Assembly: GCA_002796125.1 (NCBI GenBank)
Contig: PCWA01000109.1
Location: 1,347 to 65,346, forward strand
DNA: 64,000 nucleotides
Reading direction: 5' to 3'
Origin: Candidatus Ghiorseimicrobium undicola
GTDB taxonomy: Bacteria > Omnitrophota > Gorgyraeia > Ghiorseimicrobiales > Ghiorseimicrobiaceae
This document shows, piece after piece, positions 7,261-64,000 of this stretch. The notes beneath the pieces were generated by a model that did no database searches, was not told the origin of the DNA, and saw nothing but the letters and a program-made list of their open reading frames with translations. The translations under genes were made by a program, and so were the position numbers. The first letter of the stretch is position 1. Each line of letters opens with the position of its first letter.

Positions 7261-7261
7261 G

Positions 7262-8176
7262 TTAATTTAGGCTCTCCAGATACCGCTGGATGCAGAAAGC
7301 AGCAGTCGCCCCATCAGAACAAGCAGTAACTACTTGCCTTAATATCTTCTGGCGGCAGTCGCCGGCGGCAAATATACCTTTTTTGTTTGTCTGCATACAT
7401 TCATCGGTCAAAATATGGCCGTGTTCATCTAATTTTACTAAATCAGCCAGGAAACCGGTTGCCGGAGCCCTCCCCACATATATAAAAACCCCGCTGCAGC
7501 GTATATTTTCTTCTTTTTTTGTCTTAACATTCTTCAAGACCATCCCATCTACTTTATCTTTGCCTGATATTTTCACGACTACAGAATCCCAGACAGGCGT
7601 AATTTTATCATTACCAAGCACCCTCTCCCTCAGTATTTCCGCAGCTCTTAAAGTATCTCTTCGATGAACAAGAAAAACTTTCTCGCAGAATTTAGCCAGA
7701 TACAAGGCCTCTTCTACGGCGGTATCACCGCCGCCAATAACCGCTACCTGCTTGCCGCGGAATAAAGGCGCATCACAAGTGGCGCAATAGGAAACCCCTT
7801 TACCAATCAATAAATCTTCCCCCTCAACACCCAGGCGCTTAGGGTCAGAGCCCACCGAAATAATAATTGATTTAGATATACGCTCCGCTATATCTGTCTT
7901 TACGATCCAGCCGGATTCATCTTTCTTTATACCGCTTACTTCTTCTTGTAAAATCTCAACGCCCAGGCCCTTAACCTGTTTTTCCATATCAAGCATCAGG
8001 TCCCTGGCCAAAGGCGGCTCTTTAAAACCAGGGTAATTTTCTATGTATTCCGTAAGTAAAATCTGTCCGCCGCATGAAATTTTTTCCAAAATAAGAGTCT
8101 TTAATTTGCTTCTGCCGGCATATAACCCCGCTGTTAATCCAGCAGGGCCTGCCCCGATTATTACTACATCATACAT
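7262..8176 (-). CDS. trxB: Thioredoxin-disulfide reductase
   Basis: 304 aa; GAGPAG FAD site, CATC redox motif, NADPH GGGDTA site. Confidence 0.9.
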   Translation of the reverse strand: MYDVVIIGAGPAGLTAGLYAGRSKLKTLILEKISCGGQILLTEYIENYPGFKEPPLARDLMLDMEKQVKGLGVEILQEEVSGIKKDESGWIVKTDIAERISKSIIISVGSDPKRLGVEGEDLLIGKGVSYCATCDAPLFRGKQVAVIGGGDTAVEEALYLAKFCEKVFLVHRRDTLRAAEILRERVLGNDKITPVWDSVVVKISGKDKVDGMVLKNVKTKKEENIRCSGVFIYVGRAPATGFLADLVKLDEHGHILTDECMQTNKKGIFAAGDCRQKILRQVVTACSDGATAAFCIQRYLESLN

Positions 8177-31559: not shown

Positions 31560-32202
31560 TTATAATCCCATCCAGCATGATCTTTATGTTTCTAAAATTA
31601 TTATGGGGAACTACTCCCAGCACGGGAATATTAGAAATACTTTTGATTATCCCGGGATTCGTGCTTTCGACAACGCCGGGCCTCGGGCCCCGGGTGTTAA
31701 ATATTAACCCCGCTATTTTGAGCCCCTTATTCTTTGCATGCTCAATGGTAAGCAGAGTATGGTTTATGGCCCCTAAGCCAACATCTGCAACAATAACTAG
31801 AGGCAGGCCCAAATCAGCCGCCAGATCAGAAATAAAATAATCTTTTGTTAACGGAACTAAAAGTCCGCCCGCTCCCTCAACCAGCATGAATTGGTGAAGA
31901 TTAGACAACTTCTCAAAACTATCAAGTACGATTTTTTTCCTAAACTTTATTCCTTCTTTCTTGAATGCCAAAAGGGGAGCGTAGGAATGCTTTAAAAAAA
32001 ATGGATTAACCAACACCTTCCCGTCTTTAACGCAGGAAGCGCGCATCAATATTTCTGCGTCATTCCCCGCGCATTGCACAGGTTTCATCACTCCGCAATC
32101 AATGCCGCGTTTCTTAAGCAGCTTTATTAAAATACAGCTTACGGTAGTCTTTCCTATATCTGTACCGACTGCCGTAATAAAGATTCCTTTTGCCATAATC
32201 AT
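31552..32202 (-). CDS. bioD: Dethiobiotin synthetase
   Basis: 216 aa; FITAVGTDIGKTTVS P-loop. Confidence 0.85.
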   Translation of the reverse strand: MIMAKGIFITAVGTDIGKTTVSCILIKLLKKRGIDCGVMKPVQCAGNDAEILMRASCVKDGKVLVNPFFLKHSYAPLLAFKKEGIKFRKKIVLDSFEKLSNLHQFMLVEGAGGLLVPLTKDYFISDLAADLGLPLVIVADVGLGAINHTLLTIEHAKNKGLKIAGLIFNTRGPRPGVVESTNPGIIKSISNIPVLGVVPHNNFRNIKIMLDGIINA

Positions 32203-32978
32203 CTATCGGGTTTTACCGCTCTAACGAATATTTTTTCAAAAGAGGCGCTTATTTTATCGCCTGTTTTAAATTTTTCCATATAGAGCTTACCTGCCAATTT
32301 CAATAATCCCCTTGCCTCAAGAGCAGAAAATTTTAAACCTGCCTTATTTACTCCTAAAATCTTGAGCCAACGCAAGAGCTCGAAAATATCGTAAAATTGC
32401 TCATTTTCTACGCTGGCCGCCGTATCTATAGCGCCAAATCCTGCTCTCTCTAATTTATTACGGATTTCCTCCTCGGAGGGAAGTGTTTTTATAAATGCGG
32501 TGTTTTTTACTTTACTAATGCATTCACGGAGCTGCCAAAGGGTCGTTTTGCCAAAAAGAGAAATACAGAATAAACCGTTGGGCTTTAGAATTCGCATAGC
32601 TTCACTGAAAGCGCCATCCAGGTCAACTATCCATTGATATGCAAGGTTTGAGACTATCAAATCAAAAGCGCTTCCAGTAAAAGGAAAATGCTGCCCATCA
32701 GCCTGCACCAATAATTTCACGCCATTCGTTTTTGCTTCTTTCAGCATGCCTAAGGCAAAATCCAAGCCTATAATTCTTGATCCCGGAAAATTACGCGATA
32801 TCTCATTTATCATGCCGGCTGTGCCTGTCCCTACATCTAAGGCCATGCCGAAGCTGGCGCCTTTAAAAAATTGGCTATCGATAAACTCCCGGCATATACG
32901 CTGCTGTATAAAAGCATTCTTGTCGTAATCCGCGGCGGCTTTGGAAAATACCCTGCGTATTCCGTTATCAGCTCGCAT
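32199..32978 (-). CDS. bioC: Malonyl-ACP O-methyltransferase BioC (SAM-dependent methyltransferase)
   Basis: 259 aa; LDVGTGTAG SAM motif; operon context. Confidence 0.75.
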   Translation of the reverse strand: MRADNGIRRVFSKAAADYDKNAFIQQRICREFIDSQFFKGASFGMALDVGTGTAGMINEISRNFPGSRIIGLDFALGMLKEAKTNGVKLLVQADGQHFPFTGSAFDLIVSNLAYQWIVDLDGAFSEAMRILKPNGLFCISLFGKTTLWQLRECISKVKNTAFIKTLPSEEEIRNKLERAGFGAIDTAASVENEQFYDIFELLRWLKILGVNKAGLKFSALEARGLLKLAGKLYMEKFKTGDKISASFEKIFVRAVKPDR

Positions 32979-33116
32979 AATTATTTTAATGAGTTCCCGA
33001 TGATTCGCTTTTGCAAAGCAAAACGAGTCAGTGAGAACGGATTAACCCCGCGGAATATTGAAAAATTCTCTTCGATAATTTTTCAATGTTTATGCTGCGG
33101 AGCTTGCGTAGAAAAA

Positions 33117-36140: not shown

Positions 36141-36641
36141 TCACAATCTCAAACCGTTATTTTTTTTGAAATGATTTACCAACCCTCCGTCTGCCAATAA
36201 TGTTTGCAATACCTTGGGGATGGGAAGAATTTTTATTTTTTCTCCTCTAGTCTCATTATTTATTATAGCACGATCAAGATCTATCTCTATATTATCGTTT
36301 TCATCTATTTTATCCGTATCGGCTTCTATAAGATTTAAGCCGATATTAAAAGCATTGCGGTAAAATATGCGGGCAAAGCTCTTGGCCACAACCGCCAAAA
36401 TTCCCGCTTCTTTTATTACCAGCGGTGCCTGTTCCCGCGAAGAGCCCATACCAAAATTTTCTCCTGCGACTATGATAGATTCATTAGGCCTTACTTTTTT
36501 GACAAAACCCGGATCAAGATCTTCAAAAATATATTTAGCAAGCTCTTTCATGTCGGTTATGGAAAATTTATATCTGCCGGAAATAATTAAATCCGTATTT
36601 ATATCATTACCTAATTTTATTGCCTTGCCTTTAAGTTTCAC
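36141..36641 (-). CDS. leuD: 3-isopropylmalate dehydratase small subunit (aconitase-family, short archaeal-type)
   Basis: 166 aa aconitase swivel domain; GTG start. Confidence 0.7.
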   Translation of the reverse strand: MKLKGKAIKLGNDINTDLIISGRYKFSITDMKELAKYIFEDLDPGFVKKVRPNESIIVAGENFGMGSSREQAPLVIKEAGILAVVAKSFARIFYRNAFNIGLNLIEADTDKIDENDNIEIDLDRAIINNETRGEKIKILPIPKVLQTLLADGGLVNHFKKNNGLRL

Positions 36642-36699
36642 CCCCGCTCTTCCTTTCTGTTCTACCCCCGAATCCTTTAGGAAGGGCGGGGTTCATAAT
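36642..36699 (-). promoter_or_regulatory. Structured leader repeat (SD-sequestering hairpin), copy 1 of 2
   Basis: Minus strand CCCCGCCCTTCCTAAAGG...AGAAAGGAAGAGCGGGG-GTG; paralogous to 48403-48485 upstream of rplR. Confidence 0.5.
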
Positions 36700-37749
36700 T
36701 TAGAGATTTTTAAAATCATGCGGATTCTTTACTTTAGCCAATACCGCCTCATAGGAAACTATGCCAGCTTTATATAATTCCTTTAACGACTTATCCATGG
36801 TTCTCATGCCGTGCTGGGCTCCTGTTTGAATCAACGTAGGTATCTGTTCTACCTCCTGCTCGCGTATAAGATTACGGATTCCGGAGGTGCCTACCATTAC
36901 CTCGCAAGCCAATACCCGGCCTTCTCCTGATGCTTTAGGTAAAAGTAATTGTGAAACTACGCCCTGCAGGCAATCCGACAACTGGAGCCGTACCTGCTGC
37001 TGTTGATGAGGAGGGAAAACATCAATGATTCTCTGTATAGTCTGCGGCGCATCAGGCGTATGCAATGTCGCTAGAACCAAATGGCCTGTTTCTGCGGCCG
37101 TAAGAGCCGTAGATATGGTTTCCAAATCACGCATCTCTCCAACTATTATAACGTCCGGATCCTGCCTAAGCGCATGACGCAAGGCTTCGGCAAAAGACCG
37201 CGTATCGGAAAAAACTTCTCTCTGCTTAATAATGCTTTTCTTATTGGAATGGATAAATTCTATCGGATCTTCAATACAGACTATTATGCAAGACCTTTCG
37301 CTATTTATCAGGTTTACAATAGAAGCAAGGGTTGTTGTCTTTCCCACGCCTGTCGGCCCGGTTACCAAGACTAAACCATTGGATTTACGGGCCAGATCCA
37401 ATACTATTTTCGGAAGCCCTAAATCCGCTATATCGGGAATTAATAAAGGTATTCGCCTAAAAGCGGCCTCAACAGAGCCCCGCTGAATATGCACATTCAC
37501 GCGAAATCTATCCAGTCCGGGCAAGGCTAAAGAAAGATCAAGCTCTAAATCTTTTTCAAAGGCCTCTTTTTGTGATTCGGTAAGCATGCTATAAATTAAT
37601 TTTTTAGTATCTTCTTTGTTAAGTTTAGGGTGGTCTATATTAACCAGATGGCCGTCGATACGTAATATCGGAGGCGCATCCACCGTAAGGTGCAGATCCG
37701 AAGCTTTTTTTTCAATAGTCAGCATCAATAATGATCTTAAATCCAGCAT
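36700..37749 (-). CDS. pilT: Type IV pilus twitching-motility ATPase PilT
   Basis: 349 aa; Walker A GPTGVGKTTT, Asp box, His box. Confidence 0.9.
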   Translation of the reverse strand: MLDLRSLLMLTIEKKASDLHLTVDAPPILRIDGHLVNIDHPKLNKEDTKKLIYSMLTESQKEAFEKDLELDLSLALPGLDRFRVNVHIQRGSVEAAFRRIPLLIPDIADLGLPKIVLDLARKSNGLVLVTGPTGVGKTTTLASIVNLINSERSCIIVCIEDPIEFIHSNKKSIIKQREVFSDTRSFAEALRHALRQDPDVIIVGEMRDLETISTALTAAETGHLVLATLHTPDAPQTIQRIIDVFPPHQQQQVRLQLSDCLQGVVSQLLLPKASGEGRVLACEVMVGTSGIRNLIREQEVEQIPTLIQTGAQHGMRTMDKSLKELYKAGIVSYEAVLAKVKNPHDFKNL

Positions 37750-37987
37750 TTCAGCTCCTTAATGAGCATATCCGCCTATGGCGAGATATGCGCGAATTTT
37801 CGCCGTAGGCGAATCAGCCTTCGGCTGAAATCCCGAAACCTACCCACAAGGGTAGGCCATCCTGATACCTTTAAAGGATGGGCCCAAGCAGTAAATTTAG
37901 AATAAATTTACAAGTGTTTGGACAAGGGATACAGTTTTCAAATTGCTAAACACATCCGCCGTAGGCGGATAAGCGTGAATTAAACCG
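37750..37987. repeat. Structured intergenic repeat family, long copy (copy 1), abutting the pilT start codon
   Basis: Contains ttaatgagc (37759), gcgaatt, cagtaaatttagaataaatttacaag, and a 3' module gggatacag...catccgccgtaggcgg...gcgtgaatt closely matching copy 5 (56768-56930). Confidence 0.75.
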
Positions 37988-39250
37988 CTATTTTTCCAAA
38001 TAGATACCAGGGTCAGTAATCTTGCCGTTAATAGCAGATGCGCAAACCGTAGCCGGAGATGCAAGATAAATCTCCGCATCAGGATTGCCCATTCTGCCTT
38101 TAAAATTCCTGTTGGCCGTTGATATAACCGTTTCATTATCTGACGGCACCCCCATATGCGTTCCCACGCAAGGCCCGCAACCGGGGCTAATCACCGCGGC
38201 ATTCGCATTAATAAAAATTTTGATTAAGCCTAGTTTTAAAGCTTTCAGATAAATCTCTTTTGACGCTGGAGCCACTATAAACTTAACATCCGGGTTAATT
38301 TTATTGTCCTTTAATATTTTAGCACCAATTTTTAAATCTGCAAGCCTGCCGTTAGTACAAGTTCCTAAAAAAGCTTCGTCTATGTGCGTACCTGCGACAT
38401 CAGCGACCGGAAAAACATTATCTACGGTATGCGGCTTAGCCACCTGCGGAGTCATGCCGGAAACATCATATCTTTTAACGAAAGAATACCGCGCGCCTGC
38501 GTCTGCTTTGTATATAACCGGATTACGCCCGCTGTTCTTTAATTTCAGCCAATCCAGCACTTTCTTATCCACGGGGAAGAAAGCGCATTTTGCGCCCATT
38601 TCTACAACCATATTGCTCATAGTAAAGCGCCCGTCAAGATCAAGGCTGTCAATCGCCTCTCCGTAAAATTCCACAGCTTTGTAAGTGGCGCCATTAGCAG
38701 TTAAATCGCCTATAATATAAAGTATAATATCTTTAGCAAAAACAGATTTAGGCAATTTGCCGCTTAGTTCTATTTTTATCGTCTCAGGCACGCGAAACCA
38801 ATTTTTCCCGCTGGCTAAAGCTATGGCCAAATCAGTAGAACCCACTCCGGTAGAAGCAACTCCTATAGCACCATAGGTACACGTGTGCGAATCTGCTCCT
38901 AAAACCAAATCCCCTGGCAGTATCTTCCCGGAGAAAGGAATAACTTCATGGCAAACTCCGCAGCCGATATCATAAAGATTTAAGCCGAATTCATTAGCAA
39001 AATCGCGCATTTTTTTATGCACCTTGGAGACCCCCATATTCGGGCTTGGCGAACTATGGTCAATAACCATAGAAAATTTATCCTTATTTGCCAGCCGCTT
39101 CACCCCCAACTCCCTTATCCGGTCAATTATAATACTACTTGTGCCATCCTGGCCAAAGCAATAATCAACATTACATACGGCAAAATCGCCTGCTTTTAAA
39201 TCCTGGCCGGAATGCGCGCTTAATATTTTTTCAATAATTGTTTTATTCAT
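37988..39250 (-). CDS. leuC: 3-isopropylmalate dehydratase large subunit (aconitase-family)
   Basis: 420 aa aconitase catalytic domain with Cys ligands (GCGVCHE, GCGPCVG pattern). Confidence 0.75.
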   Translation of the reverse strand: MNKTIIEKILSAHSGQDLKAGDFAVCNVDYCFGQDGTSSIIIDRIRELGVKRLANKDKFSMVIDHSSPSPNMGVSKVHKKMRDFANEFGLNLYDIGCGVCHEVIPFSGKILPGDLVLGADSHTCTYGAIGVASTGVGSTDLAIALASGKNWFRVPETIKIELSGKLPKSVFAKDIILYIIGDLTANGATYKAVEFYGEAIDSLDLDGRFTMSNMVVEMGAKCAFFPVDKKVLDWLKLKNSGRNPVIYKADAGARYSFVKRYDVSGMTPQVAKPHTVDNVFPVADVAGTHIDEAFLGTCTNGRLADLKIGAKILKDNKINPDVKFIVAPASKEIYLKALKLGLIKIFINANAAVISPGCGPCVGTHMGVPSDNETVISTANRNFKGRMGNPDAEIYLASPATVCASAINGKITDPGIYLEK

Positions 39251-39291
39251 AATTTAAATCTCGTTACAGTTTTATCAGTTGCTTAACCAGG

Positions 39292-40479
39292 CTAAATCAA
39301 CAGATCCAAAAATTCCCTAAGCCGTTTTATTCCTTTTTCAATCTGCTCTTTACTTGTGGCAAAACTAAAGCGCACATACCCATCGTCTCCAAAAGCACTG
39401 CCGGGAATAGAGGCGACATGCTTTTCTGTTAAGAACCTGCTGGAAAAATCAAATGAATTCAGGCCGGTTTTTGATATATCGCAAAATACATAGAATGCCC
39501 CCTGCGGCTTTATATATTCCATACCTGCCTCATCAAGCAAAACAAGCATATAATCACGCCTGGATTCAAATTCTTTACGCATCACATCAACAACAGAGCT
39601 GTCCAAAGAAAGAGCCGCAAGCGCTGCTTTCTGTGAAATAGAACAAGGGTTTGAAGTTGAATGGTCCTGAATTTTAGAGATTGCCTCCACCGCCGTTTTA
39701 TCCCCTGCCATATATCCGATGCGCCAGCCGGTCATAGAATAAGCCTTAGATACGCCATTTACAACAAATGTTCTTTTATAAATATCGTCGTTTATGCTTG
39801 CGATAGATATATGCCTGCCATTTTCATAAATCAATTTTTCATATATCTCATCGCTTATAACAAATAGCTTATTCTTGATGCACACCTCCGCTATATCTTC
39901 CAATTCATTTCTGGCGTAAGTATAACCTACGGGATTAGACGGAGAATTTAAAATGAGGGCTTTTGTCTTTTTAGTAATGCTCTTTTTCAAAGAATCTCCG
40001 TCCAACTTAAAAGAACAGGACTTATTTGTCTTGACGATAGCCGGAACGCCGCCGCAGAATTTAACCATCTCCACGTAACTTACCCAATAGGGAGACGGGA
40101 CGATAACTTCATCGCCCTCTGCGATCAAAGCCTGCATAAGATTAAAAAGAGAATGTTTTGCGCCGTTGGAAACTACTATTTGATCAATATCGTAATTTAG
40201 ATTATTATCCAGGCGGAATTTTTTCTGGATTGCGCTCTTAAGCTCAAAAATCCCGGAAGAAGGGGTATATTTTGTAAAACCGCTTTTTATCGCATCTATA
40301 GCCGCCTGCTTGATTTGATCCGGGGTGTCAAAATCAGGCTCGCCGGCAGCAAAGCTTACCACATCGATATGTTCCTGACGCATTTTTTTTGCGCGGGCTG
40401 TAATAGAAAGAGTAGAGGAAGGATTTATTTGCTGACTTCTCTTGGAAAGATATGCCATATTATGCTGTGAGCAAAACAA
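39292..40479 (-). CDS. aspC: Aspartate/aromatic aminotransferase (class I)
   Basis: 395 aa; PLP-lysine motif SKAYSMTGWRIGY; true start possibly MAYLSK at 40458. Confidence 0.8.
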   Translation of the reverse strand: MFCSQHNMAYLSKRSQQINPSSTLSITARAKKMRQEHIDVVSFAAGEPDFDTPDQIKQAAIDAIKSGFTKYTPSSGIFELKSAIQKKFRLDNNLNYDIDQIVVSNGAKHSLFNLMQALIAEGDEVIVPSPYWVSYVEMVKFCGGVPAIVKTNKSCSFKLDGDSLKKSITKKTKALILNSPSNPVGYTYARNELEDIAEVCIKNKLFVISDEIYEKLIYENGRHISIASINDDIYKRTFVVNGVSKAYSMTGWRIGYMAGDKTAVEAISKIQDHSTSNPCSISQKAALAALSLDSSVVDVMRKEFESRRDYMLVLLDEAGMEYIKPQGAFYVFCDISKTGLNSFDFSSRFLTEKHVASIPGSAFGDDGYVRFSFATSKEQIEKGIKRLREFLDLLI

Positions 40480-40621
40480 GTATCAAGCAATAATGATATT
40501 CTATATATTATTCTCCCGAGTAAAAAGCGATAAAATGCATTTTTTACTTAGGAATAATTATTCTGACCAAGAATATTACTGCGAAGCCTTAGCGAAACGA
40601 AATAAAAATAAACAATTCTGC

Positions 40622-50844: not shown

Positions 50845-51213
50845 CTAAACTACTTCTGGGGCCAGCGAAATAATCTTCATGAAATCTTTCTCTCTCAACT
50901 CCCTGGCGACCGGCCCGAAAACTCTTGTCCCCTTAGGATTACGCTGATTATCAATGATTACCGCAGCATTACGGTCAAAACGTACTGTAGACCCGTCCGG
51001 CCTGCGTATGGGCGCCTTTGTCCTAACTACCACCGCTTTGGCAACCTCTCCTTTTTTTACGCCTGCATCAGGAGCAGATTCTTTTACATTTACGACTATC
51101 ACATCGCCAATTTCGGCGGTACGCCGGTTTTTTCTGCCGAGAACATTAATAAAGGAAACCTTCTTTGCTCCCGTATTATCCGCTACATCCAATATTGACC
51201 TTATTTGTATCAT
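50845..51213 (-). CDS. rplN: 50S ribosomal protein L14
   Basis: 122 aa. Confidence 0.95.
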
Positions 51214-51278
51214 TTTCTACTCTTATCCTTTACTTATTGAGCTTTATACAACTAAAAGCAAAAATCAATAGTTACTGA

Positions 51279-51554
51279 TTATTTCAAAACCTCTATCAAT
51301 CTCCAGTACTTATCTTTAGAAAGAGGCCTCGTCTCCATTATTCTTACGCGATCACCGATTTTAGCGGTATTATTTTCATCATGTACTTTAAACTTATTAT
51401 ATTTTTTTATTATTTTTTTATAGGCGGGGTGACGGGCAGCCATCTCAACCCTTACCACGATAGTTTTCTGCATTTTATCGCTGGTAACATAACCTATGCG
51501 CTCTTTCCTTTTTGCTCTAACATTTGTCATTTTATATTCTTCCTTTTTTTGCAC
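51279..51554 (-). CDS. rpsQ: 30S ribosomal protein S17
   Basis: 91 aa. Confidence 0.95.
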
Positions 51555-51724
51555 AAAATAGTTTCAATCCTGGCAATATCTTTTTTAAATTTAGAGAATA
51601 AGTGCGGCTTATCTACCCTACCGAATTTACGCTGATAATTCAATTTATGCAGCTCTTCTTTACAGGATGTTTTTTTCTGAATAAGTTCATCTGCGCTCAA
51701 ATTAGTATAATCTTCTTTTTTCAC
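51527..51724 (-). CDS. rpmC: 50S ribosomal protein L29
   Basis: 65 aa; overlaps rpsQ. Confidence 0.9.
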
Positions 51725-51799
51725 TAAATCTTCCCTTCCTGTCGTTATATTTTTAACACCCGCCTCGTATTTACGGCAGGCGAGAGGCAGGCGGTAAAA

Positions 51800-52219
51800 T
51801 TAATAGCTATGGCCGTGCTTAATTAATTTTGTTTTTACAGGCAGTTTAAAAGACGCCAGCCTAAAAGCCTCTTTAGCAAGGGCTTCAGGAACACCTCCCA
51901 GCTCAAAAAGAACCTGACCTCTTTTTACTACAGCTACCCAATGATCTAATTCACCCTTGCCTTTTCCCATGCGTGTTTCCGCGGGTTTTTTCGTCACGGA
52001 CTTATGCGGAAAAATCCTTATCCAAAGCTTCCCGCCGCGGCGAAGCTGCCTGGCGATTATAACGCGCACCGCCTCAATGTGCATACTTTTAATCCAGCCG
52101 TTATCCAAGGCTTTTAATCCGAACTCGCCGAAGTTAACCTTATTTGAACGCAAAGAAATGCCTTTACGCCTTCCTCTTTGTAATTTTCTATACTTTACTC
52201 TTTTGGGCATCAAAGCCAT
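51800..52219 (-). CDS. rplP: 50S ribosomal protein L16
   Basis: 139 aa. Confidence 0.95.
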
Positions 52220-52234
52220 AGCTTACCTACCTAT

Positions 52235-52969
52235 TTATTTTACTGATTTTGCTTCTCTAAACTTAAAATTTTCCTGCTTGGTCTCTATATCCTCTCGAAG
52301 ATTCATAGACCTACCTATAATGTCGCCTTTATAAATCCATACTTTTATGCCTATAAGGCCATATGTCGTGTAGGCCTCGCAAAAACCATAATCTATGTCT
52401 GCCCTCAGAGTTTGAAGCGGGATTTTTCCTTCCTTATATTTCTCGCGACGCGATATCTCTACCCCTCCCAACCTCCCGGCACAGGCAACTTTTATTCCTT
52501 TTGCCCCCGCGCTCATCGCCTGCTCTATTGCCCGCTTTACCGCTCTTCGATAAGCTACGCGCTTCTCTATCTGGAAAGCTATATTCTGCGCTACAATCTG
52601 GGCATCAATGGCGGGCCGCTTGACCTCCACTATATCAATAGCTAAATCTTTCTTGATTAGTTTATACAAATCCTGCTTTAATCTATCGATATCTGCTCCG
52701 TGCCTACCGATAATTACACCTGGACGCGCCGTATATATTCTAATACGCAGACTTCCGGTGCTAACCCTTTCGATTATTATTTTTGAAAGAGAAGCCTGGC
52801 GAAATTTAACGCGTATATAACTGCGTATCCTGGCATCTTCAACAATAAATCGGGCAAAGTCGCCTTTAGGAGCGAACCATCTACTGTTCCAGTCTTTAAT
52901 AAAGCCTATTCTTGATATTAGAGGATGAACTTTGTGTCCCAAAATTGCCTCCTTGATTAATCCTGACAA
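52235..52969 (-). CDS. rpsC: 30S ribosomal protein S3
   Basis: KH plus S3-C domains; the true start is probably the TTG 8 codons in (GHKVHP), with an AAGGAGG SD upstream. Confidence 0.95.
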   Translation of the reverse strand: MSGLIKEAILGHKVHPLISRIGFIKDWNSRWFAPKGDFARFIVEDARIRSYIRVKFRQASLSKIIIERVSTGSLRIRIYTARPGVIIGRHGADIDRLKQDLYKLIKKDLAIDIVEVKRPAIDAQIVAQNIAFQIEKRVAYRRAVKRAIEQAMSAGAKGIKVACAGRLGGVEISRREKYKEGKIPLQTLRADIDYGFCEAYTTYGLIGIKVWIYKGDIIGRSMNLREDIETKQENFKFREAKSVK

Positions 52970-53023
52970 GGCGTAACGAAAATTCCGTCTTGTGATATTC
53001 CTTACAATTTATGTAATTAACGC

Positions 53024-53359
53024 TTATTTATGTTTTAAATCCAATTCTATCTTAAGATGAACCGTGCGCTTCAAAATCGGCGCAGCCCTGCCAAACGCCG
53101 CTGCCCGGTATCGCTTCCATCTTGCGCCTTCATCAGCGCTGATACGGGATATATAGAGCTGTTGAGGTTCTATGCCTTTAACTTTAGCGTTAGCAATAGC
53201 AGAACGAAGCGTTTTAAGCACGTAATCCCGCGGACGCTTATTTAAATTAGGCAATAAGCCCAACGCATAAGAAACATCTTCGCCTCTAATTAAATCAATG
53301 ACTTCGCGTGTTTTTCTTGGTGACAGCCTTAAAAATTTGTTTTCTGCTCTTGATATCAT
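53024..53359 (-). CDS. rplV: 50S ribosomal protein L22
   Basis: 111 aa. Confidence 0.95.
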   Translation of the reverse strand: MISRAENKFLRLSPRKTREVIDLIRGEDVSYALGLLPNLNKRPRDYVLKTLRSAIANAKVKGIEPQQLYISRISADEGARWKRYRAAAFGRAAPILKRTVHLKIELDLKHK

Positions 53360-53483
53360 ATTAATGAGCCCACAACTTACGGAGTGAAGCTAACGTAAGT
53401 TGTTTGGGCGAATTAATCCCGCAGCCTATCAGGGTAAATTTCTGCGAAATTTACCCTGATGTTTAGGCAAGGGATATTGATCC
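53360..53483. repeat. Structured intergenic repeat family, copy 4, abutting the rplV start codon (inside the S10 operon)
   Basis: ttaatgagccc-[hairpin acaacttacg/cgtaagttgt]-ttgggcgaattaatcccg-[perfect hairpin cagggtaaattt/aaatttaccctg]-gtttaggcaagggat. Confidence 0.8.
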
Positions 53484-53494
53484 TTTAAATTATA

Positions 53495-53782
53495 TTAAGT
53501 TTTATCGGCTGCTTTCTTTGCTTTTACGCCGCCGTGTTTTCTGAATATGCGCGTTGGCGCAAACTCACCTAATTTATGCCCGACCATATTTTCGGTAATA
53601 AATACAGGCACGTGTTTTCTTCCGTCATAAACGGCAAATGTAAAACCTACGAAATCAGGAGTAACCACCGAGCGCCTGGACCATGTTTTAATTGCCTGGC
53701 GGCTTCCGGTTTTTCGTGCCCTATCTACCTTTTTTAATAACTTTTCATCTATAAATGGTCCTTTTTTTATCGACCGCGCCAT
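53495..53782 (-). CDS. rpsS: 30S ribosomal protein S19
   Basis: 95 aa. Confidence 0.95.
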
Positions 53783-53805
53783 ATCCCTCTCCGATGTTCA
53801 AAAAT

Positions 53806-54639
53806 TTATTTTCTTCTGTTCACTATATATTTATCAGAATATTTAACCTTCTTCCGGGTTCGGAAGCCTTTTGTGGGTTTCCCCCAAGGCGTTACCGGAT
53901 GAGGATTACCCTGCCCTGATTTACCCTCGCCTCCGCCGTGCGGATGATCGACAGGATTCATAACAACGCCTCTGACATGCGGCTTTCTCCCTTTCCAATT
54001 ATTTCTACCCGCTTTACCGTCTTTCTCCGCTTCATGACTTACATTACCGACTTGCCCTATGGTTGCCGAACAATCCAAGCGCACCAACCTGACTTCTCCG
54101 GAAGGAAGCCGAACATGCGCAAAATCTCCTTCCTTAGCCATTATCTGGGCGGACGTTCCTGCGCCCCTGACTATCTTGCCCCCCTGGCCTTTAACCAGTT
54201 CAATATTATGCATTAATGTTCCTGAAGGAATATTACGCAGAGGCATACAATTACCTGATTTAATATCAATCTCCGCCGTATCTGAGCTTATAACAGCATC
54301 TCCCACATTTAAATCCACAGGAGCTAGAATATAACGCTTTTCTTTATCTTCATATTCCAAAAGAGCAATCCTGCTTGAACGATTAGGGTCATATTCAATA
54401 GCAATAACCCTCGCAGGTATATTTTTCTTATCGCGTTTGAAATCTATGACACGATACATCCGTTTATGTCCGCCGCCGCGAAACCGCACGGTAATACGCC
54501 CATAACAATTCCTGCCGCCGCTTTTCTTTAAAGGCCTAAGAAGAGATTTTTCAGGCGTATTTTTAGTAATCTCCTCAAAGGTGGGACGCTTCATAAATCT
54601 CATACCGGGTGTTGTTGGATTATATTTTCTTATAGCCAT
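53806..54639 (-). CDS. rplB: 50S ribosomal protein L2
   Basis: 277 aa. Confidence 0.97.
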
Positions 54640-54680
54640 AGTTTAAGTTTTAATTTTGATTTTCTTTGATTTTTTATTTT

Positions 54681-54959
54681 TTATGTTGTGTCTATCTTAT
54701 GACCTTCTTTTAAGCTGACTATCGCCTTTTTCCAGTCTGAAGTATATCCAGTCTGATAGCGTAATCTTTTTGCCTTCCCCTTAGAAATCAACGTATTTAC
54801 ACAGTCAACTTTAACCTTATAAATTGATTCAACCGCCTTTTTTATCTGTATTTTATTCGCTCTTTTATTAACCCAAAATACATACCTTCCAAAAGGCTCA
54901 TCAAAGTTTGTGCTTTTTTCGGTGCGAATTATCGTCTTAACAACGTCGTAATTATCCAT
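54681..54959 (-). CDS. rplW: 50S ribosomal protein L23
   Basis: 92 aa. Confidence 0.9.
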   Translation of the reverse strand: MDNYDVVKTIIRTEKSTNFDEPFGRYVFWVNKRANKIQIKKAVESIYKVKVDCVNTLISKGKAKRLRYQTGYTSDWKKAIVSLKEGHKIDTT

Positions 54960-54964
54960 ATTTT

Positions 54965-55666
54965 CTAAAGGCTGTTTTTTATTCTGCTGGTTATTTTTTT
55001 TAGCGCCTCTTTAGTCATCAATAATTTCTTATGGCACAACACATCATAAGCAGTTACGTCTTCCGGCCTGATTATATTTAAATTCGCGATATTCCCCATG
55101 GAACGCCGTACTCCGGCGCTGTTATCAAAAACGCCTAATGTCGCGCTACTAAGGCGTGTTCCGGAAATAATCCCCGGTAAATGCGATAATAATTTTATCG
55201 CGTCTTTTGTTTTCTCAAGCTTAGCCAAACTATCAAGCAGTATAACATCCTGATTGTTAAGGCGGCTGTTAATGCTGGATTTCAAAGCTGAGATTCTTAT
55301 TTTCTGCGGTATGGTATAAGAAAAATCGCGCGGCCTGGGACCAAAAGTAACGCCTCCATGCTTAAAAAGCGGCGAACGGGAAGAACCTGCTCTCGCGCGC
55401 CCGGTACCTTTCTGCCTCCAAGGCTTTTTCCCGCCTCCGGACACTTCACCGCGGGTTTTCGTAGAAGCGGTACCCGTACGTAAATTCGCCTGATAACAAA
55501 TCACTGCCTGATGCAGGATATCCTTGTTGACTCCACCGTCAAAAATATGCTTATCCAAAACCAAATCCTCCAGCTTCCTGCCGTCGCTGCCGTAAACAGA
55601 CAACTTGAAATCTTGAGGATCTTTGGTTGCCAAATTATTTTTTTTGTTAGATTTAATATCGGTCAT
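54965..55666 (-). CDS. rplD: 50S ribosomal protein L4
   Basis: 233 aa. Confidence 0.95.
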   Translation of the reverse strand: MTDIKSNKKNNLATKDPQDFKLSVYGSDGRKLEDLVLDKHIFDGGVNKDILHQAVICYQANLRTGTASTKTRGEVSGGGKKPWRQKGTGRARAGSSRSPLFKHGGVTFGPRPRDFSYTIPQKIRISALKSSINSRLNNQDVILLDSLAKLEKTKDAIKLLSHLPGIISGTRLSSATLGVFDNSAGVRRSMGNIANLNIIRPEDVTAYDVLCHKKLLMTKEALKKITSRIKNSL

Positions 55667-55674
55667 TTAGATTC

Positions 55675-56376
55675 CTATTTCTTTTTTATATTTTTCTTAC
55701 CCTTTGGCTTACTTTGTTTTTTCTCTGCTTCTCTTGCGGCAGCTTCAGCTTTTAGGGCATTTATATCACCGCGTTTTTTTGCTTTTCGGATTATTACATA
55801 ACTATTTTTATGGCCTGCTACAGAACCTTTAACGGATAGCATATTATTTTCACTGTCTACGCTGACCACTCTGAGATTTTGCACGGTAATGCGGCTATTT
55901 CCCATATGCCCGGGCATGTGCGTATTTTTAAATACGCGCGAAGGGTCGGAACTAGCACCTATAGAACCGACTCTGCGATGAGACATGGAACCATGGCTCT
56001 TCGGTCCGCCACTCCAATGCCAGCGTTTGACGCCGCCCTGAAACCCTTTACCTATAGAAACGCCTGTAACATCCACAAAATCGCCTTCTTTGAATATATC
56101 CACCTTTATCGCCTGGCCGATATTGTATTCTTGCGGTTTATCAACTTTTATTTCCTTAATAAAAGCCTGCGGCTCAACGGATATCTTTTTGAAAACACCG
56201 GACTGTGGACGCGCCAGCCGCCTATCAGCAATCTTACCGAAACCAACCTGTATACTATTGGCTTTTTTCTGAATTACAAAACACGGCCCTGCCTCAATAA
56301 CCGTAACCGGAACAAAACGCCCGTCTTCATTAAATTTATGCGTCATCCCTAATTTTCTACCTAATAAACCGCTCAT
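55675..56376 (-). CDS. rplC: 50S ribosomal protein L3 (with Lys-rich C-terminal tail)
   Basis: 233 aa. Confidence 0.95.
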   Translation of the reverse strand: MSGLLGRKLGMTHKFNEDGRFVPVTVIEAGPCFVIQKKANSIQVGFGKIADRRLARPQSGVFKKISVEPQAFIKEIKVDKPQEYNIGQAIKVDIFKEGDFVDVTGVSIGKGFQGGVKRWHWSGGPKSHGSMSHRRVGSIGASSDPSRVFKNTHMPGHMGNSRITVQNLRVVSVDSENNMLSVKGSVAGHKNSYVIIRKAKKRGDINALKAEAAAREAEKKQSKPKGKKNIKKK

Positions 56377-56467
56377 AGTGATTTTAAAATTTACAATCGG
56401 ATTTTTCTATAGAGCAGGCAGAATTAATATTTTTAAACGCCGGCTTTTGAATCCAATTGTATAATTA

Positions 56468-56767
56468 TTATTTTATTTCTACCGCTACTCCAGCAGGTAG
56501 GTTTAGCTTACGCAGGGCATCAACCGTCTTAGCCGTAGGATCAAGCAACTCTAAAAGACGACGATGCGTAAAAAGGCCAAATTGTTCCCGTGATTTTTTA
56601 TCAATAACCGTAGCCCTTAACACTGTGTATATCTCTTTTTTAGTCGGCAGCGGAATCGGTCCTGAAACACGCGCACCAGTCCTTTTCGCTGTCTCTACGA
56701 TTTCCTGTGTTGATTGATCAAGCAATCTGTGATCGTAAGCTTTTAATTTTATACGTATCTTCTGCAT
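56468..56767 (-). CDS. rpsJ: 30S ribosomal protein S10
   Basis: Likely start ATG at 56767 ([12 protein letters not shown] matches the S10 N-terminus); the ORF track begins at an upstream in-frame GTG (56779). Confidence 0.95.
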
Positions 56768-56930
56768 TTTAATGAGCACATAAGTTACGGAAGCGAAGCT
56801 GACGTAATTTATAAGTGCGAATTAATCCCGAAGCCTGTGCAGTAAATTTCGAAGAAATTTACAAACGTTTAGGCGAGGGATACATTTACAAACTGCTGAG
56901 CCCATCCGCCTGCGGCGAAATATGGGCGAA
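56768..56930. repeat. Structured intergenic repeat family, copy 5 (with 3' extension module), between the tuf stop and the rpsJ start
   Basis: tttaatgagcac-[hairpin ataagttacg/cgtaatttat with a G-T pair]-gtgcgaattaatcccg-[cagtaaattt/aaatttac]-gtttaggcgagggatacattt...gagcccatccgcctgcggcgaaatatgggcgaatt. Confidence 0.8.
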
Positions 56931-58136
56931 TTAAGCGATTATCTCAGAAACCACGCCGGCTCCTACTGTATGGCCGCCTTCACGAATAGCAAAACGTGAT
57001 TCTTTCTCCATGGCAATCGGAACAATCAATTCTACTTCTACTGTTACGTTATCGCCAGGCATAACCATCTCCGTTCCTTCGGGAAGTTTTACATTCCCCG
57101 TAACATCGGTTGTTCTGAAATAAAACTGAGGACGGTAGCCGGTAAAAAACGGCGTATGTCTTCCGCCTTCTTCTTTACTTAAAACATAAACCTGGGCTTT
57201 AAATTTGGTATGCGGAGTAATGGAACCGGTCGCAGCCAATACCATACCTCTCTCAAGAGTAGCTTTTTCTACGCCTCTTAAAAGCAGACCTACGTTATCT
57301 CCTGCCTGCCCTTCATCCAGCAACTTACGAAACATCTCAATACCCGTAACTACTGTCTTGCCTATTTCCGGTTTAAGCCCCACTATATCTATATTCTCAT
57401 TAAGCTTTATTTTACCACGCTCAATCCTGCCGGTTCCTACTGTACCGCGGCCTTCTATTGAAAAAACGTCTTCTATGGCCATAAGAAATGGCTTATCTAA
57501 GTCCCTCTTAGGCAGGGGAATATAGTCATCAACGGCCTTCATAAGGTCTACAATCGGTTTACACTTAGGGCAATCGTCTTTAGCGCAACCACAACCCATT
57601 GCCTCAAGCGCGCTTCCTTTAATAACAGGGACCTTATCCCCTTCAAAGTTATATTTTGTAAGCAATTCCCTGGTTTCCATCTCCACCAAATCAATCAGCT
57701 CTTTATCGTCAACCATATCTACTTTATTCAAAAATACAACCAATGCCGGCACATTTACCTGACGGGCTAAAAGAATGTGCTCTCTTGTTTGAGGCATCGG
57801 GCCGTCCGCGGCTGAAACAACCAATATACCGCCGTCCATCTGCGCGGCACCGGTAATCATGTTTTTAATGTAGTCGGCGTGACCCGGGCAGTCAATATGC
57901 GCATAATGCCTGGCATCTGTCTGATACTCAACATGGGCGATGTTAATCGTTACTCCTCTTTCCTTTTCTTCAGGAGCATTATCAATAGAATCATAAGTTC
58001 TGGCTTCAGCATAACCTTTCTTACCTAAAACCATTGTTATAGCCGAAGTTAACGTGGTTTTTCCATGATCAACGTGCCCTACTGTTCCGATATTTACGTG
58101 TGGCTTATTTCTTACAAATTTTTCTTTAGCCATCAT
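56931..58136 (-). CDS. tuf: Elongation factor Tu
   Basis: 401 aa; GHVDHGKTT; strong AAGGAGGG SD. Confidence 0.98.
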
Positions 58137-61277: not shown

Positions 61278-64000
61278 TTATTTTGTCTCTTTGTTTGCAC
61301 CTGGCTCTTCAATATTTTTTACGATATCGATATTTTGGTGGCTATGGAAACTTGTCCCCGCCGGTATTAAGTGCCCGACAATAACATTTTCCTTAAGGCC
61401 AAACAGCTCGTCGCTTTTACCAGCTGCCGCGGCTTCGGTAAGAATCTTGGTTGTCTCCTGGAAACTGGCCGCAGATATAAAACTTTCGGTGCTGAGCGAG
61501 GCCTTAGTGATTCCCAATAAGATCGGCGTAGCGGAAGCGGCTTTGCCTTTTTTCTTCATTACTCTCTCATTTTCGTCGCGAAATGCCCATTTATCAACCT
61601 GTTGATTGGTTAAAAATACGGTATCGCCCGGTTCATCAATTTTTACTTTTTTAAGCATCTGGCGTATAATTAACTCTATGTGCTTATCGTTAATTCGCAC
61701 ACCCTGCAGACGGTAGATTTCCTGCACCTCATTAACCAAATATTCTTGTAAAACTTTATCTCCGCAAACACGTAAGATATCCTGAAGGACCACAGGGCCA
61801 TCAGTTAATTGCTGGCCGGCGTTAACTTTATCCCCTTTATATATATTTGGATGCTTACCGTGGGGAATGGCATATTCCCTTTTCATGCCCGTGGGGCTTT
61901 TTACAATGATCGCGCGCTGTCCTTTTTTCGATTCTCCAAATTCCACAAAACCGTCTAACTCGGAAATTAAAGCTGGGTCTTTCGGCCGCCTGGCTTCGAA
62001 TAATTCAGCTACCCGTGGTAAACCGCCTGTTATATCGCGGGTCTTCCCAACCACGCGCGGAATCTTAGCCAAGAGATCGCCTGCTTCAACCTTATTTCCA
62101 TCCTCAACCAATATATGCGCACCTATAGGAATAGAATAAATCCCGGCAACCTCGCCTTTATTATCTAAAATCAAAATATGAGGATGATACTCGGCTTTAT
62201 GCTCAACAATAACCCTTTCCACTAATTTTGTGGCAGGATTGAGCTCTTTGCGCATAGTGATATTTTCTTTAATGTCTTCGAATTTTACAACACCGGCGAC
62301 TTCCGTTAAGGTAGGAATATTATAAGGGTCCCAGCGAATAAAAACGGAATCTTTATTGACGGTTTTACCGTCAGGAATATATATAACAGCACCCTGCGGA
62401 ACGGGATAGCGTTCGAATTCCCGCCCTTCTTCATCATTTATGCTTATGGCGCCGTTTCTATTTAAAACAATAAACTCTTTTGACTTGTCTACAACTTTTA
62501 GGTTATGATACTTAATAAAACCTTTATTTTTGGCCTTAAGATAAGATTGCTCAACAATACGGCTTGCCGTGCCTCCTATATGGAAAGTTCTCATAGTAAG
62601 CTGCGTTCCTGGTTCACCTATCGATTGTGCCGCGATAATCCCGACAGCTTCTCCTGCTTCGACTATTCTTCCTGTAGCTAAATTTCTACCATAACACTTG
62701 GCACAGACTCCTCTAGCTGTTTCGCAGGTCAAAACGCTTCTAATGCGTATTTTTTCGATACCCAGCATCTCTATCCTATCTGCCTTTTCTTCGGTAATCT
62801 CCTGCCCTGCTTCAACTATAATGTCATCGGTAATAATATCGACAATATTATCCAGGGCTATCCTGCCCACAATCCTATCTTTTAAGCTTACGACCACCTC
62901 ATCGCCTTCGATAATTGCGCTCAAGGTGATGCCGTTTAAAGTACCGCAATCGTCATCGATGATTATAACTTCCTGTGCTACATCTACCAGCCTGCGCGTA
63001 AGATAACCGGCGTCCGCTGTTTTCAACGCGGTGTCAGCTAACCCTTTTCTAGCGCCATGCGTCGATATAAAATACTCCAGAACGGTCAATCCTTCTCTAA
63101 AATTTGCCGTTATCGGGCTTTCAATAATCTCACCCGAGGGCTTGGCCATTAAACCGCGCATTCCGGCGAGCTGGCGTATCTGTAACCTGGATCCGCGCGC
63201 GCCAGAGTCAGCCATCAGAAATATCGGGTTAAAACTATCCATTTCCGTGAAAACTAAATCTGAAATCTTGTCAGTCGTATGCGTCCAGATATCGATTATC
63301 TTATTATAACGTTCCCTGTTTGTAATTATACCCTTACGGTACTGATCATCAACCTTTGCCACTTCCTGTTTTGCTTCGGCCAAAACAGCCTTTTTCTGTT
63401 TTGGTATCTTTAAATCATCAATGGATATGGAAAGGCCGGCAATAGTCGCGTATTCGAATCCCAACTGTTTTAAATCATCAAGAAGTTTTATTGTTACATT
63501 ATGGCCAAAACGCTTAAATGAAATAGAAACTACATCGCCTACGCTTTTCTTACCCATATTAAGGTTGACAAAGCCGAATCCTTTCGGCAGAGACAAATTA
63601 AATATTACGCGGCCCACGGTTGTATCAATAAATTTTCTTTCGTTTATAAGTTTATTTTCTCCCATGTCGAAGACTTCATCTATTCTTACTTTAATCTTAG
63701 ACTGTAAATCAATAACATTATCGTTATAAGCCATTACCGCCTCTTCGCAATCAGCGAATATCTTGCCTTCACCTTTGGCCTGCGCTTTTTCCCGCGTCAA
63801 ATAGGCAATTCCCAAAATTATATCTTGCGTAGGTGTTATGATCGGGCGGCCGTCAGCAGGAGAAAAAATATTATTTACGGACAGCATCAATATACGGCTC
63901 TCTATCTGTGACTCCAATGAAAGCGGCACATGTACCGCCATTTGGTCTCCGTCAAAATCGGCATTGAATGCAGTACATACCAAAGGATGGATTTTTATCG
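61278..64000 (-). CDS. rpoC: DNA-directed RNA polymerase beta' subunit (partial; N-terminal part lies beyond the window end)
   Basis: [14 protein letters not shown] catalytic motif; the ORF runs off the window end. Confidence 0.95.

Follow-up and report, generated by a model that had tools for sequence, protein, structure and literature searches.

A 64,000-nucleotide stretch of the genome of Candidatus Ghiorseimicrobium undicola (contig PCWA01000109.1, positions 1,347 to 65,346 of the forward strand; referred to here as the window) raises the question of why large palindromic repeats should lie directly before the start codons of essential genes. The host belongs to the Omnitrophota, a phylum of uncultured, nano-sized bacteria that are abundant and have compact genomes. 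An initial annotation of the window described at least five such repeats and suggested that they could be IS200/IS605-derived (PATE-like) mobile elements, elements resembling repetitive extragenic palindromic (REP) sequences and bacterial interspersed mosaic elements (BIMEs), or a cis-acting RNA leader. The evidence presented below indicates, with a probability of about 0.75, that the repeats are non-autonomous modular palindromic elements of the REP/BIME/REPIN/MITE kind rather than RNAs dedicated to the control of translation. The REP/BIME-like identity fits best in that the repeats are modular, interspersed and extragenic, occur as singlets, tandems and doublets, differ between relatives, and are palindromes at the level of DNA.

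The basic unit of the family comprises, in the mRNA sense, a variable P hairpin (NCCC...GGGN) and, directly attached to it, an H hairpin of the form TTAAT-TC-G(3 variable bp)(1-3 nt bulge)(~10-bp stem-loop)C-TC-ATTAA. Within the H module, the 2x2 TC/TC loop (which reads GA/GA on the opposite strand) is fixed, a helix of 4 bp varies, and the bulge is always on the same arm. The arms of the P hairpin are of the ATCCC/GGGAT type and enclose a GCCTAAAC/AGGC internal loop as well as the second of the two hairpins recognized in the initial annotation. The modular layout given there (TTAATGAGC, hairpin 1, GCGAATTAATCCCG, hairpin 2, GTTTAGGCGAGGGAT) is right, but the stems are longer than was stated there: TTAAT/ATTAA closes hairpin 1 across the 2x2 TC/TC loop, and the P arms enclose hairpin 2. 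The ends of the element read TTAATGAG / TAAGTGAG (CTCATTAA / CTCACTTA). Copies in the window are singlets and direct composites, for which the earlier statement that terminal inverted repeats are missing holds, but the complete form in other genomes, including that of the relative L139, is an inverted doublet, H(antisense)-P-H(sense), in which one end is usually of type A (TTAATTCG...CTCATTAA) and the other of type B (TAAGTTCGG...CCTCACTTA).

All three helices of the unit vary by compensatory substitution. The proximal helices of copies 2-6 of the window read GGCC/GGCC, GCGC/GCGC, GCCC/GGGC, GCAC/GTGC and GTTC/GAAC, in agreement with the compensatory differences reported initially. The internal pentamer TTAAT (variants TAAGT, TCAAT and TAAAT) pairs with the terminal ATTAA (variants ACTTA, ATTGA and ATTTA), and the two change together in this closing helix, which is TTAAT/ATTAA in 111 cases, TCAAT/ATTGA in 7, TAAGT/ACTTA in 7 and TAAAT/ATTTA in 5. 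The three base pairs beside the TC/TC loop, where the anchors set the register, use CG, GC, AT and TA freely and are 94-98% complementary, versus 43-74% when arms are swapped between copies. When 48 sequences are aligned, 93.3% of the cells are paired, compared with 77.5% after shuffling and 28-43% when partners are slid, and the doubly changed cells number 146 versus 43. A perfect 7-nt complement is present in the P arms of 39 of 113 copies, versus 3.8 in controls.

RNA under selection normally tolerates G·U pairs but not A·C pairs. Among approximately 2650 pairs in the repeats, GT and TG combinations occur 23 times and AC and CA combinations 25 times. Since G·U is no commoner than A·C, both strands are equally constrained, and the constraint is on a DNA palindrome, not on an RNA structure. 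The initial annotation had taken the compensatory changes as a sign of selection for secondary structure; the changes are real, but they maintain the palindrome in the DNA. This result bears on the possibility that the repeats are structured RNA leaders that organize Shine-Dalgarno (SD)-independent initiation at the abutted ATG, either through a hairpin-bridged split ribosome-binding site that uses the purine-rich GGRR 5' of H or through operon-internal processing to near-leaderless mRNAs. Strong covariation speaks for such a leader, but the lack of a G·U excess over A·C speaks against it.

The family extends far beyond the window. A scan of species-representative (GTDB) genomes for one exact pattern, an A-type H adjoining P, gave at least 116 loci, of which 68 are from Omnitrophota, 25 from Bacteroidota, 12 from uncultured 'Planctomycetia/Planctomycetales' and a few from other taxa, as judged by record title. 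Three of the listed loci are chance matches that lack hairpins, and the repeats are present in more than 100 genomes, mostly of Candidatus Omnitrophota. Four pattern matches in viral contigs likewise lack the hairpin (22-27 bits) and are due to chance; the family is absent there. A covariance-model search had been proposed as a check on the family, and a model built from 48 sequences of other genomes, with no window sequence included, gives scores of 59-74 bits to copies 2-5. Applied to the listed loci, it detects 148 modules in 100 of them, with up to 5 per 8 kb, and only 10 of the 148 matches lie inside crude calls of open reading frames (ORFs). No matching family was found in Rfam 15 when the window and 16 carrier loci were searched at gathering thresholds and positions 53300-57000 at E<=10, and no description was found in the literature on Omnitrophota repeats or with the literal motif. 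On the evidence of Rfam 15 and of the literature open to searching, the repeats constitute a previously undescribed family among the bacterial interspersed palindromic repeats. Bacteroidota copies (L042, L045, L098, L109, L089 and L073) are embedded in tandem 6-10-mers such as CTTTATAAA, AGAGCA and GGTTGATT.

The position of the copies relative to genes was examined in the listed loci. The initial annotation, which knew only co-oriented copies, called for their orientation to be tabulated, and family-wide it is near random: singlet H modules between co-directional genes are sense in 37 cases and antisense in 25 (p=0.16). The gene boundary that the H end faces is a start in 83 cases and an end in 58. 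An ORF start lies within 30 nt of 61 of the 121 pattern-matched copies, and the distances to the downstream ORF start are bimodal, at 0-4 nt and at 9-18 nt, with cases in which GGAGG directly follows ...TTAA among the larger. At the other boundary, 20 of the 32 long ORFs that run into the terminus stop at a TAA or TGA inside TTAATGAG/TAAGTGAG. Copies also begin 0-2 nt after the 3' ends of tRNAs and 1 nt after the signal recognition particle (SRP) RNA; antisense elements, for example, begin 0-2 nt after the 3' ends of the small SRP RNA of Bacteroidales and of several tRNAs (L007:3411-3581; L057, L077, L082 and L050). Termini that coincide with stops, starts and RNA 3' ends suggest that the pattern is one of filling the whole gap between functional units rather than one of preceding start codons. 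A restriction to translation genes was considered and rejected, the downstream genes being ordinary and diverse housekeeping genes. The frequency of nearby starts in these loci speaks for an RNA leader, starts being twice as frequent as ends within 30 nt, but the difference between sense and antisense copies is not significant, and the abutment of stop codons, tRNA 3' ends and an SRP RNA in antisense argues against that function.

Comparison of orthologous spacers for presence or absence of the repeat, another check suggested initially, distinguishes the relatives of the window. No copy is present in 20 kb of the same operons in L124, L125 and L126, whose ribosomal protein L22 is 55-61% identical; L142 (72%) has none either, and in the closest relative found, L141 (77%), the rpsS-rplV gap is 5 nt (TAA-CTGAT-ATG). 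L139 (70%), by contrast, has copies or doublets at tuf-rpsJ, rpsJ-rplC, rpsS-rplV, rpsH-rplF and rpsE-rplO and none at secY-adk, and the P and stem sequences of these copies are unlike those of the window. The spacers of these relatives rule out a conserved orthologous leader. The abutted ATGs are true conserved starts, as the N-termini MQKIR, MISR/MIA, MSRIGK and MNI align with those of relatives, and the genes start at the same ATGs in relatives that lack the element. That the spacers of L124, L125, L126, L141 and L142 are empty while the same ATGs are used is a further point against an RNA leader. Near-identical strains share the spacers, with no strain-level presence or absence at tuf-rpsJ or rpsH-rplF; only strain L003, whose L22 is identical, differs, and it does so at copy 4, where an extra 86 nt (2488-2573) lies between P and H. 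Made up of family modules, namely a TAGGTT...AACCTA hairpin and a P module in inverted orientation, the insert points to ongoing module shuffling or nested insertion.

Three side observations concern gene calls and repeats in these operons. On the source contig, the called rplF lacks 9 codons relative to the conserved start, MSRIGK, which adjoins copy 3 (L001:14359). A called 43-amino-acid 'gene' between rpsE and rplO in L139 (15691-15822) is an element doublet. The rplP-rpmC spacer of L139 (11454-11613) contains three tandem units of ~44 nt (CCAGAGGGCGATGGTTTGGCTTCCAAATAGCCAAAGCCATTAAG), which form another kind of hairpin repeat that has no relation to the H/P family.

Within the window, all five copies described initially are present at their reported positions, and there are in addition a sixth full copy, a P remnant and a weak H-like module (Table 1). 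All genes around the copies are on the minus strand, and the ORF map confirms the five gaps. As had been stated, two of the copies interrupt the S10 and spc operons. Copy 6 has stems entirely different from those of the other copies, and the H-like module downstream of pilT is on the strand opposite to them. The TAA stop of tuf (56931-56933) lies inside the TTAATTCG that opens the H' module of copy 5. Five matches to the anchor pattern TTAATYCG-N25-55-CTCATTAA are present in the window, where 0.02 would be expected by chance; four of the matches are copies 3-6, while copy 2 is missed by the exact pattern. The fifth match (TTAATTCG...CTCATTAA), at 61690-61735 on the plus strand and antisense within rpoC, has no hairpin, scores 13.9 bits and is probably due to chance.

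Table 1. Copies and remnants of the repeat family, in window positions; scores are those of the covariance model
Feature	Position	Strand	Location	Make-up	Score	End of element and what follows
Copy 1	37759..37984	(-)	upstream of pilT-like ORF 36700-37749	long composite: upstream H'-like module in sense orientation (TTTAATTCACGC...), P with additional nested hairpins, degenerate terminal H	12.6 bits only (terminal H)	CTCATTAA at 37759, then AAGGAGCTGAA, then pilT ATG at 37749
Copy 2	45636..45747	(-)	secY-adk spacer	P ~45692-45747, H 45636-45697	59.3 bits	CCTCATTAA, flush with adk ATG (45635), 0 nt between
Copy 3	49030..49111	(-)	rpsH-rplF spacer, spc operon	minimal P hairpin 49088-49111, H hairpin 49030-49094	67 bits	CTCATTAA, then A, then rplF ATG (49028)
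Copy 4	53361..53475	(-)	rpsS-rplV spacer, S10 operon	P 53416-53475, H 53361-53422	74.1 bits	CTCATTAA, then T, then rplV ATG (53359)
Copy 5	56769..56934	(-)	tuf-rpsJ spacer	sense H'-like module ~56894-56934, linker, P 56825-56881, H 56769-56831	73.2 bits (H' 9.1 bits)	CTCATTAA, then A, then rpsJ ATG (56767)
Copy 6	32986-33102	(-)		full, divergent P+H unit	31.8 bits, E=1e-4	CTCATTAA, then the 7 nt AATAATT, then ATG of ORF 32199-32978
P-only remnant	48441-48482	(-)	rplF-rplR spacer, directly 3' of rplF stop	ATCCCGCCCTTCCT...AGGAAGAACGGGAT		truncated TAAGCGG
Possible degenerate H-like module	36637-36695	(+)	spacer downstream of pilT	TAAGTTTCAC-hairpin-GTTCATAA	17.1 bits, E=0.13 (weak match)	

The initial annotation held that each of its five copies ends exactly at a start codon and lacks an SD site. 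This is true of four of the five, which end 0-1 nt before the ATG, but not of the pilT copy, which is followed by AAGGAGCTGAA, a normal AAGGAG-type SD. Nor is a missing SD peculiar to the abutted genes, as rplB, rplW, rplC, fusA, map and others in the window are also SD-less. The element closes with 8 nt (CUCAUUAA) that are A/U-rich and are held only by five A-U pairs beyond an internal loop, and the predicted unpaired probability is 0.38-0.8 for positions -12 to -1 and 0.36-0.74 from the AUG to +12. Since SD-less initiation is frequent here and CUCAUUAA is weakly paired, the abutted genes are plausibly translatable with no need of special machinery. A scan for promoters and terminators revealed neither enrichment nor sites associated with the elements, other than the P-type hairpin at 48441-48482, and the hairpins are not followed by a T tract. 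Two features of the neighboring operons may be recorded here: there is no rpmD (L30) between rpsE and rplO (47551-47570), and a 227-nt gap (43781-44007) separates infA and rpsM, where rpmJ is expected.

Taken with the rest, these features make a dedicated RNA leader very improbable. In its favor, all six clear copies of the window are sense to genes, and four of them end 0-1 nt from the ATG of an essential gene. An ordinary GGAGG follows many copies elsewhere, however, as an ordinary SD does before pilT in the window, other window genes do without an SD, and the repeats have no Rfam match. The initial annotation itself named random positions and orientations of the copies relative to genes as a ground for refutation, and neither the 37 sense to 25 antisense copies nor the spacers of relatives, which are not conserved leaders, fit it. 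Two narrower proposals also fail. A hammerhead ribozyme (plus strand UUAAUGAG-stem-CGAA, and also TTAATGAG-stem-CGAA) was rejected: hammerheads have CUGAUGA and GAAA cores in a three-way junction, whereas here the core C3 and G5 are replaced and the flanks form a simple helix, and a hammerhead match is not obtained in Rfam even at E<=10. A coupling ORF of the type seen in mycobacterial interspersed repetitive units (MIRUs) was rejected as well, as the frames that end at the terminal TAA have no start codon in 3 of 5 window copies.

If the repeats are mobile palindromic elements, their distribution could be accounted for as follows. Copies would be spread in trans by an enzyme, the likeliest of which would be a HUH/Y1 transposase that recognizes hairpins in single-stranded DNA (RAYT or IS200/IS605-like). 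The internal pentamer might act on the terminal or target pentamer in the manner of a guide, and insertion would occur next to TAA-like or TTAA-like sites. In compact genomes the only harmless sites of this kind would be stop codons and the few bases that precede the SD or ATG of the next gene, and purifying selection would leave copies that span the gap from stop to start and seem to end at the ATG. Insertion beside TAA-like sites combined with survival only in gaps is the most probable explanation of why copies are flush with stop and start codons. Mobilization of the IS200/IS605 type (PATE-like) may be the mechanism.

Alternatively, the repeats could be cut-and-paste MITEs (miniature inverted-repeat transposable elements) derived from a DDE insertion sequence of the IS630/Tc1-like or IS5/PIF-like kind, with the inverted H modules as terminal inverted repeats and TA or TAA/TTA as the target-site duplication. 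Among nearby module pairs in the listed loci, 17 are inverted in the order H(antisense)-P-H(sense), none has the opposite inverted order, and 9 are direct tandems, and the constant polarity of the doublets, with outward ends ...CTCAYTWA, is as expected of such a transposon. In approximately 10 of the 18 doublets inspected, the same trinucleotide stands on both sides (TAA...TAA or TTA...TTA), and stop codons coincide with it. This trinucleotide belongs to the covarying helix, however, and the terminal pentamer, the supposed duplication included, covaries with the internal pentamer, which suggests that the terminal pentamer is part of the element or a guide-matched site rather than a random copy of the target. 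Many apparent singlets retain a ...CTTA remnant of the lost arm, and their left flanks have no consensus. Three singlets lie exactly in the T-loop or D-loop of tRNA fragments as P+H elements whose flanks are contiguous and without duplicated bases, which speaks against a DDE element. At L032:6400-6970, L062 (minus strand) 6991-7647, L011 and L022, a complete tRNA is followed by 1-2 tandem units, each of which is a partial 3' (or 5') tRNA fragment with a P+H element in the T-loop (or D-loop), and L022 also has a long P hairpin that contains an entire tRNA in antisense. Copies in one genome, moreover, differ by compensatory changes rather than forming a near-identical burst, and no parent insertion sequence was seen near copies in the listed loci. 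The asymmetric bulge, the fixed 2x2 mismatch and the guide-like covarying pentamer resemble HUH/Y1 substrates more than DDE-type ends, and an origin from a DDE element appears improbable.

Several observations weigh against the reading of the repeats as mobile palindromic elements. No transposase, recurrent protein or HUH-motif protein was found near copies in the 116 listed 8-kb loci, in which 1149 ORFs were clustered all against all, genes bracketed by copies were inspected, and a regular expression for the HUH motif was applied; the genes near copies are only housekeeping genes. The relatives compared yielded no clean pair of filled and empty sites with alignable flanks, and the singlets in the T- and D-loops of tRNA fragments have no TAA on their left side. 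The genomes were sampled with one exact pattern (A-type H adjoining P) and through listed matches only, and the gene calls in the loci are crude ORF calls. The uniform sense orientation of the window copies and the count of H ends within 30 nt of gene starts (42) and gene ends (21) in the listed loci make a mild functional or selective effect of orientation conceivable.

It is also possible to imagine that a selfish repeat was later co-opted as an mRNA stabilizer, a site for processing by RNase III or RNase E, or an attenuator that tunes ribosomal-protein genes. Co-option of this sort is known for some REP, ERIC and Correia copies. The same three spacers of the highly expressed S10/spc operons are occupied in two lineages by different sequences, and the RNAs are predicted to fold very stably (-40 to -102 kcal/mol), both of which would suit a function in the RNA, as would the adjacency to tRNA and SRP RNA 3' ends, which looks over-frequent for the genome share of these genes. 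On the other hand, relatives manage without the element, there is no terminator-like T tract, and no strand-specific wobble signature is seen. Some copies may have a co-opted RNA role as a stabilizer, processing site or hairpin-bridged ribosome-binding site, but nothing in the sequence data requires one, and tuning of ribosomal-protein genes by co-opted copies is decidedly improbable. A bolder proposal, unlikely but worth stating, is that the family is a long-lived, vertically inherited replicator of the REPIN type that has its own single-copy hairpin-specific transposase in Omnitrophota and Bacteroidota and pentamer-programmed insertion, and whose termini have been co-opted as gene punctuation in extremely compact operons. 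One end would then supply the TAA or TGA stop of the upstream gene, and the other an SD-free A/U-rich or hairpin-bridged context for initiation.

Whatever the means of their spread, the mobile palindromic elements proposed here are notable for their occurrence across phyla, for their guide-like covarying pentamers, and for being tolerated directly before essential start codons, where they show the extent to which essential operons accept large structured insertions. By way of the covariation of guide-like and terminal pentamers, a mode of hairpin-dependent transposition that may be new could be put to the test. The elements matter for annotation, in which they yield false small genes (the 43-amino-acid call in L139) and shifted starts (the shortened rplF), and the repeats are relevant to assembly and binning.

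Among known systems, Correia elements (NEMIS) of Neisseria and ERIC and IRU sequences are similarly small, abundant inverted repeats that are co-transcribed, often lie right before starts, and form long RNA hairpins. Correia elements differ in having long terminal inverted repeats, a TA duplication and near-identical copies, whereas the repeats described here are modular and divergent and vary by compensatory changes. MIRUs of Mycobacterium also occupy intercistronic gaps in operons and are flush with the flanking stop and start codons, but they are tandem units of 46-100 bp with small ORFs that overlap the flanking stop and start, while the present repeats are hairpin-based and have no consistent ORF. 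As they lack coupling ORFs, they are not MIRUs.

PATEs of the IS200/IS605 group share with the present family the subterminal hairpins and the existence of singlets without evident target duplication. IS608 provides a further parallel. In that element, guide sequences pair with the cleavage sites, and in the present family an internal sequence beside the hairpin is complementary to, and covaries with, the terminal or flanking pentamer, which is fixed for each subtype and matches the guide-like internal pentamer. The two hairpins of a doublet are mutually inverted here, however, whereas the ends of IS608-type elements are equivalent hairpins on one strand. Other differences from PATEs are that the singlets have no conserved target in the left flank, that no tnpA or tnpB is found near copies, and that an orientation bias is not demonstrated.

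The closest resemblance is to REP sequences, BIMEs and REPINs, which are likewise short, imperfectly palindromic sequences in which a bulge or mismatch and a tag beside the stem are conserved, and which are extragenic and often located inside operons. The resemblance extends to the occurrence of singlets, tandems and inverted doublets, to the A- and B-type H modules with P, which recall Y and Z REPs and the linkers of BIMEs, and to long persistence with compensatory maintenance of the hairpins. REP sequences are defined by a GTAG (or CGTC) tetranucleotide tag at the end of the palindrome (PMC3733652). The tag here is (T)TAATGAG or TAAGTGAG instead, and no RAYT was found near copies; with the GTAG/CGTC tag absent and no RAYT known, the repeats are not REP sequences sensu stricto. 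The H module also is longer (~60 nt), contains the 2x2 TC/GA loop, and pairs its terminus with an internal pentamer. Finally, REP sequences are hosted by Enterobacteria and Pseudomonas, whereas the present family resides in Omnitrophota, Bacteroidota and metagenome-assembled genomes labelled Planctomycetia, a host range that is new for this kind of element, with up to approximately 1 copy per 8-10 kb in Omnitrophota and a distribution that Bacteroidota have in common with them.

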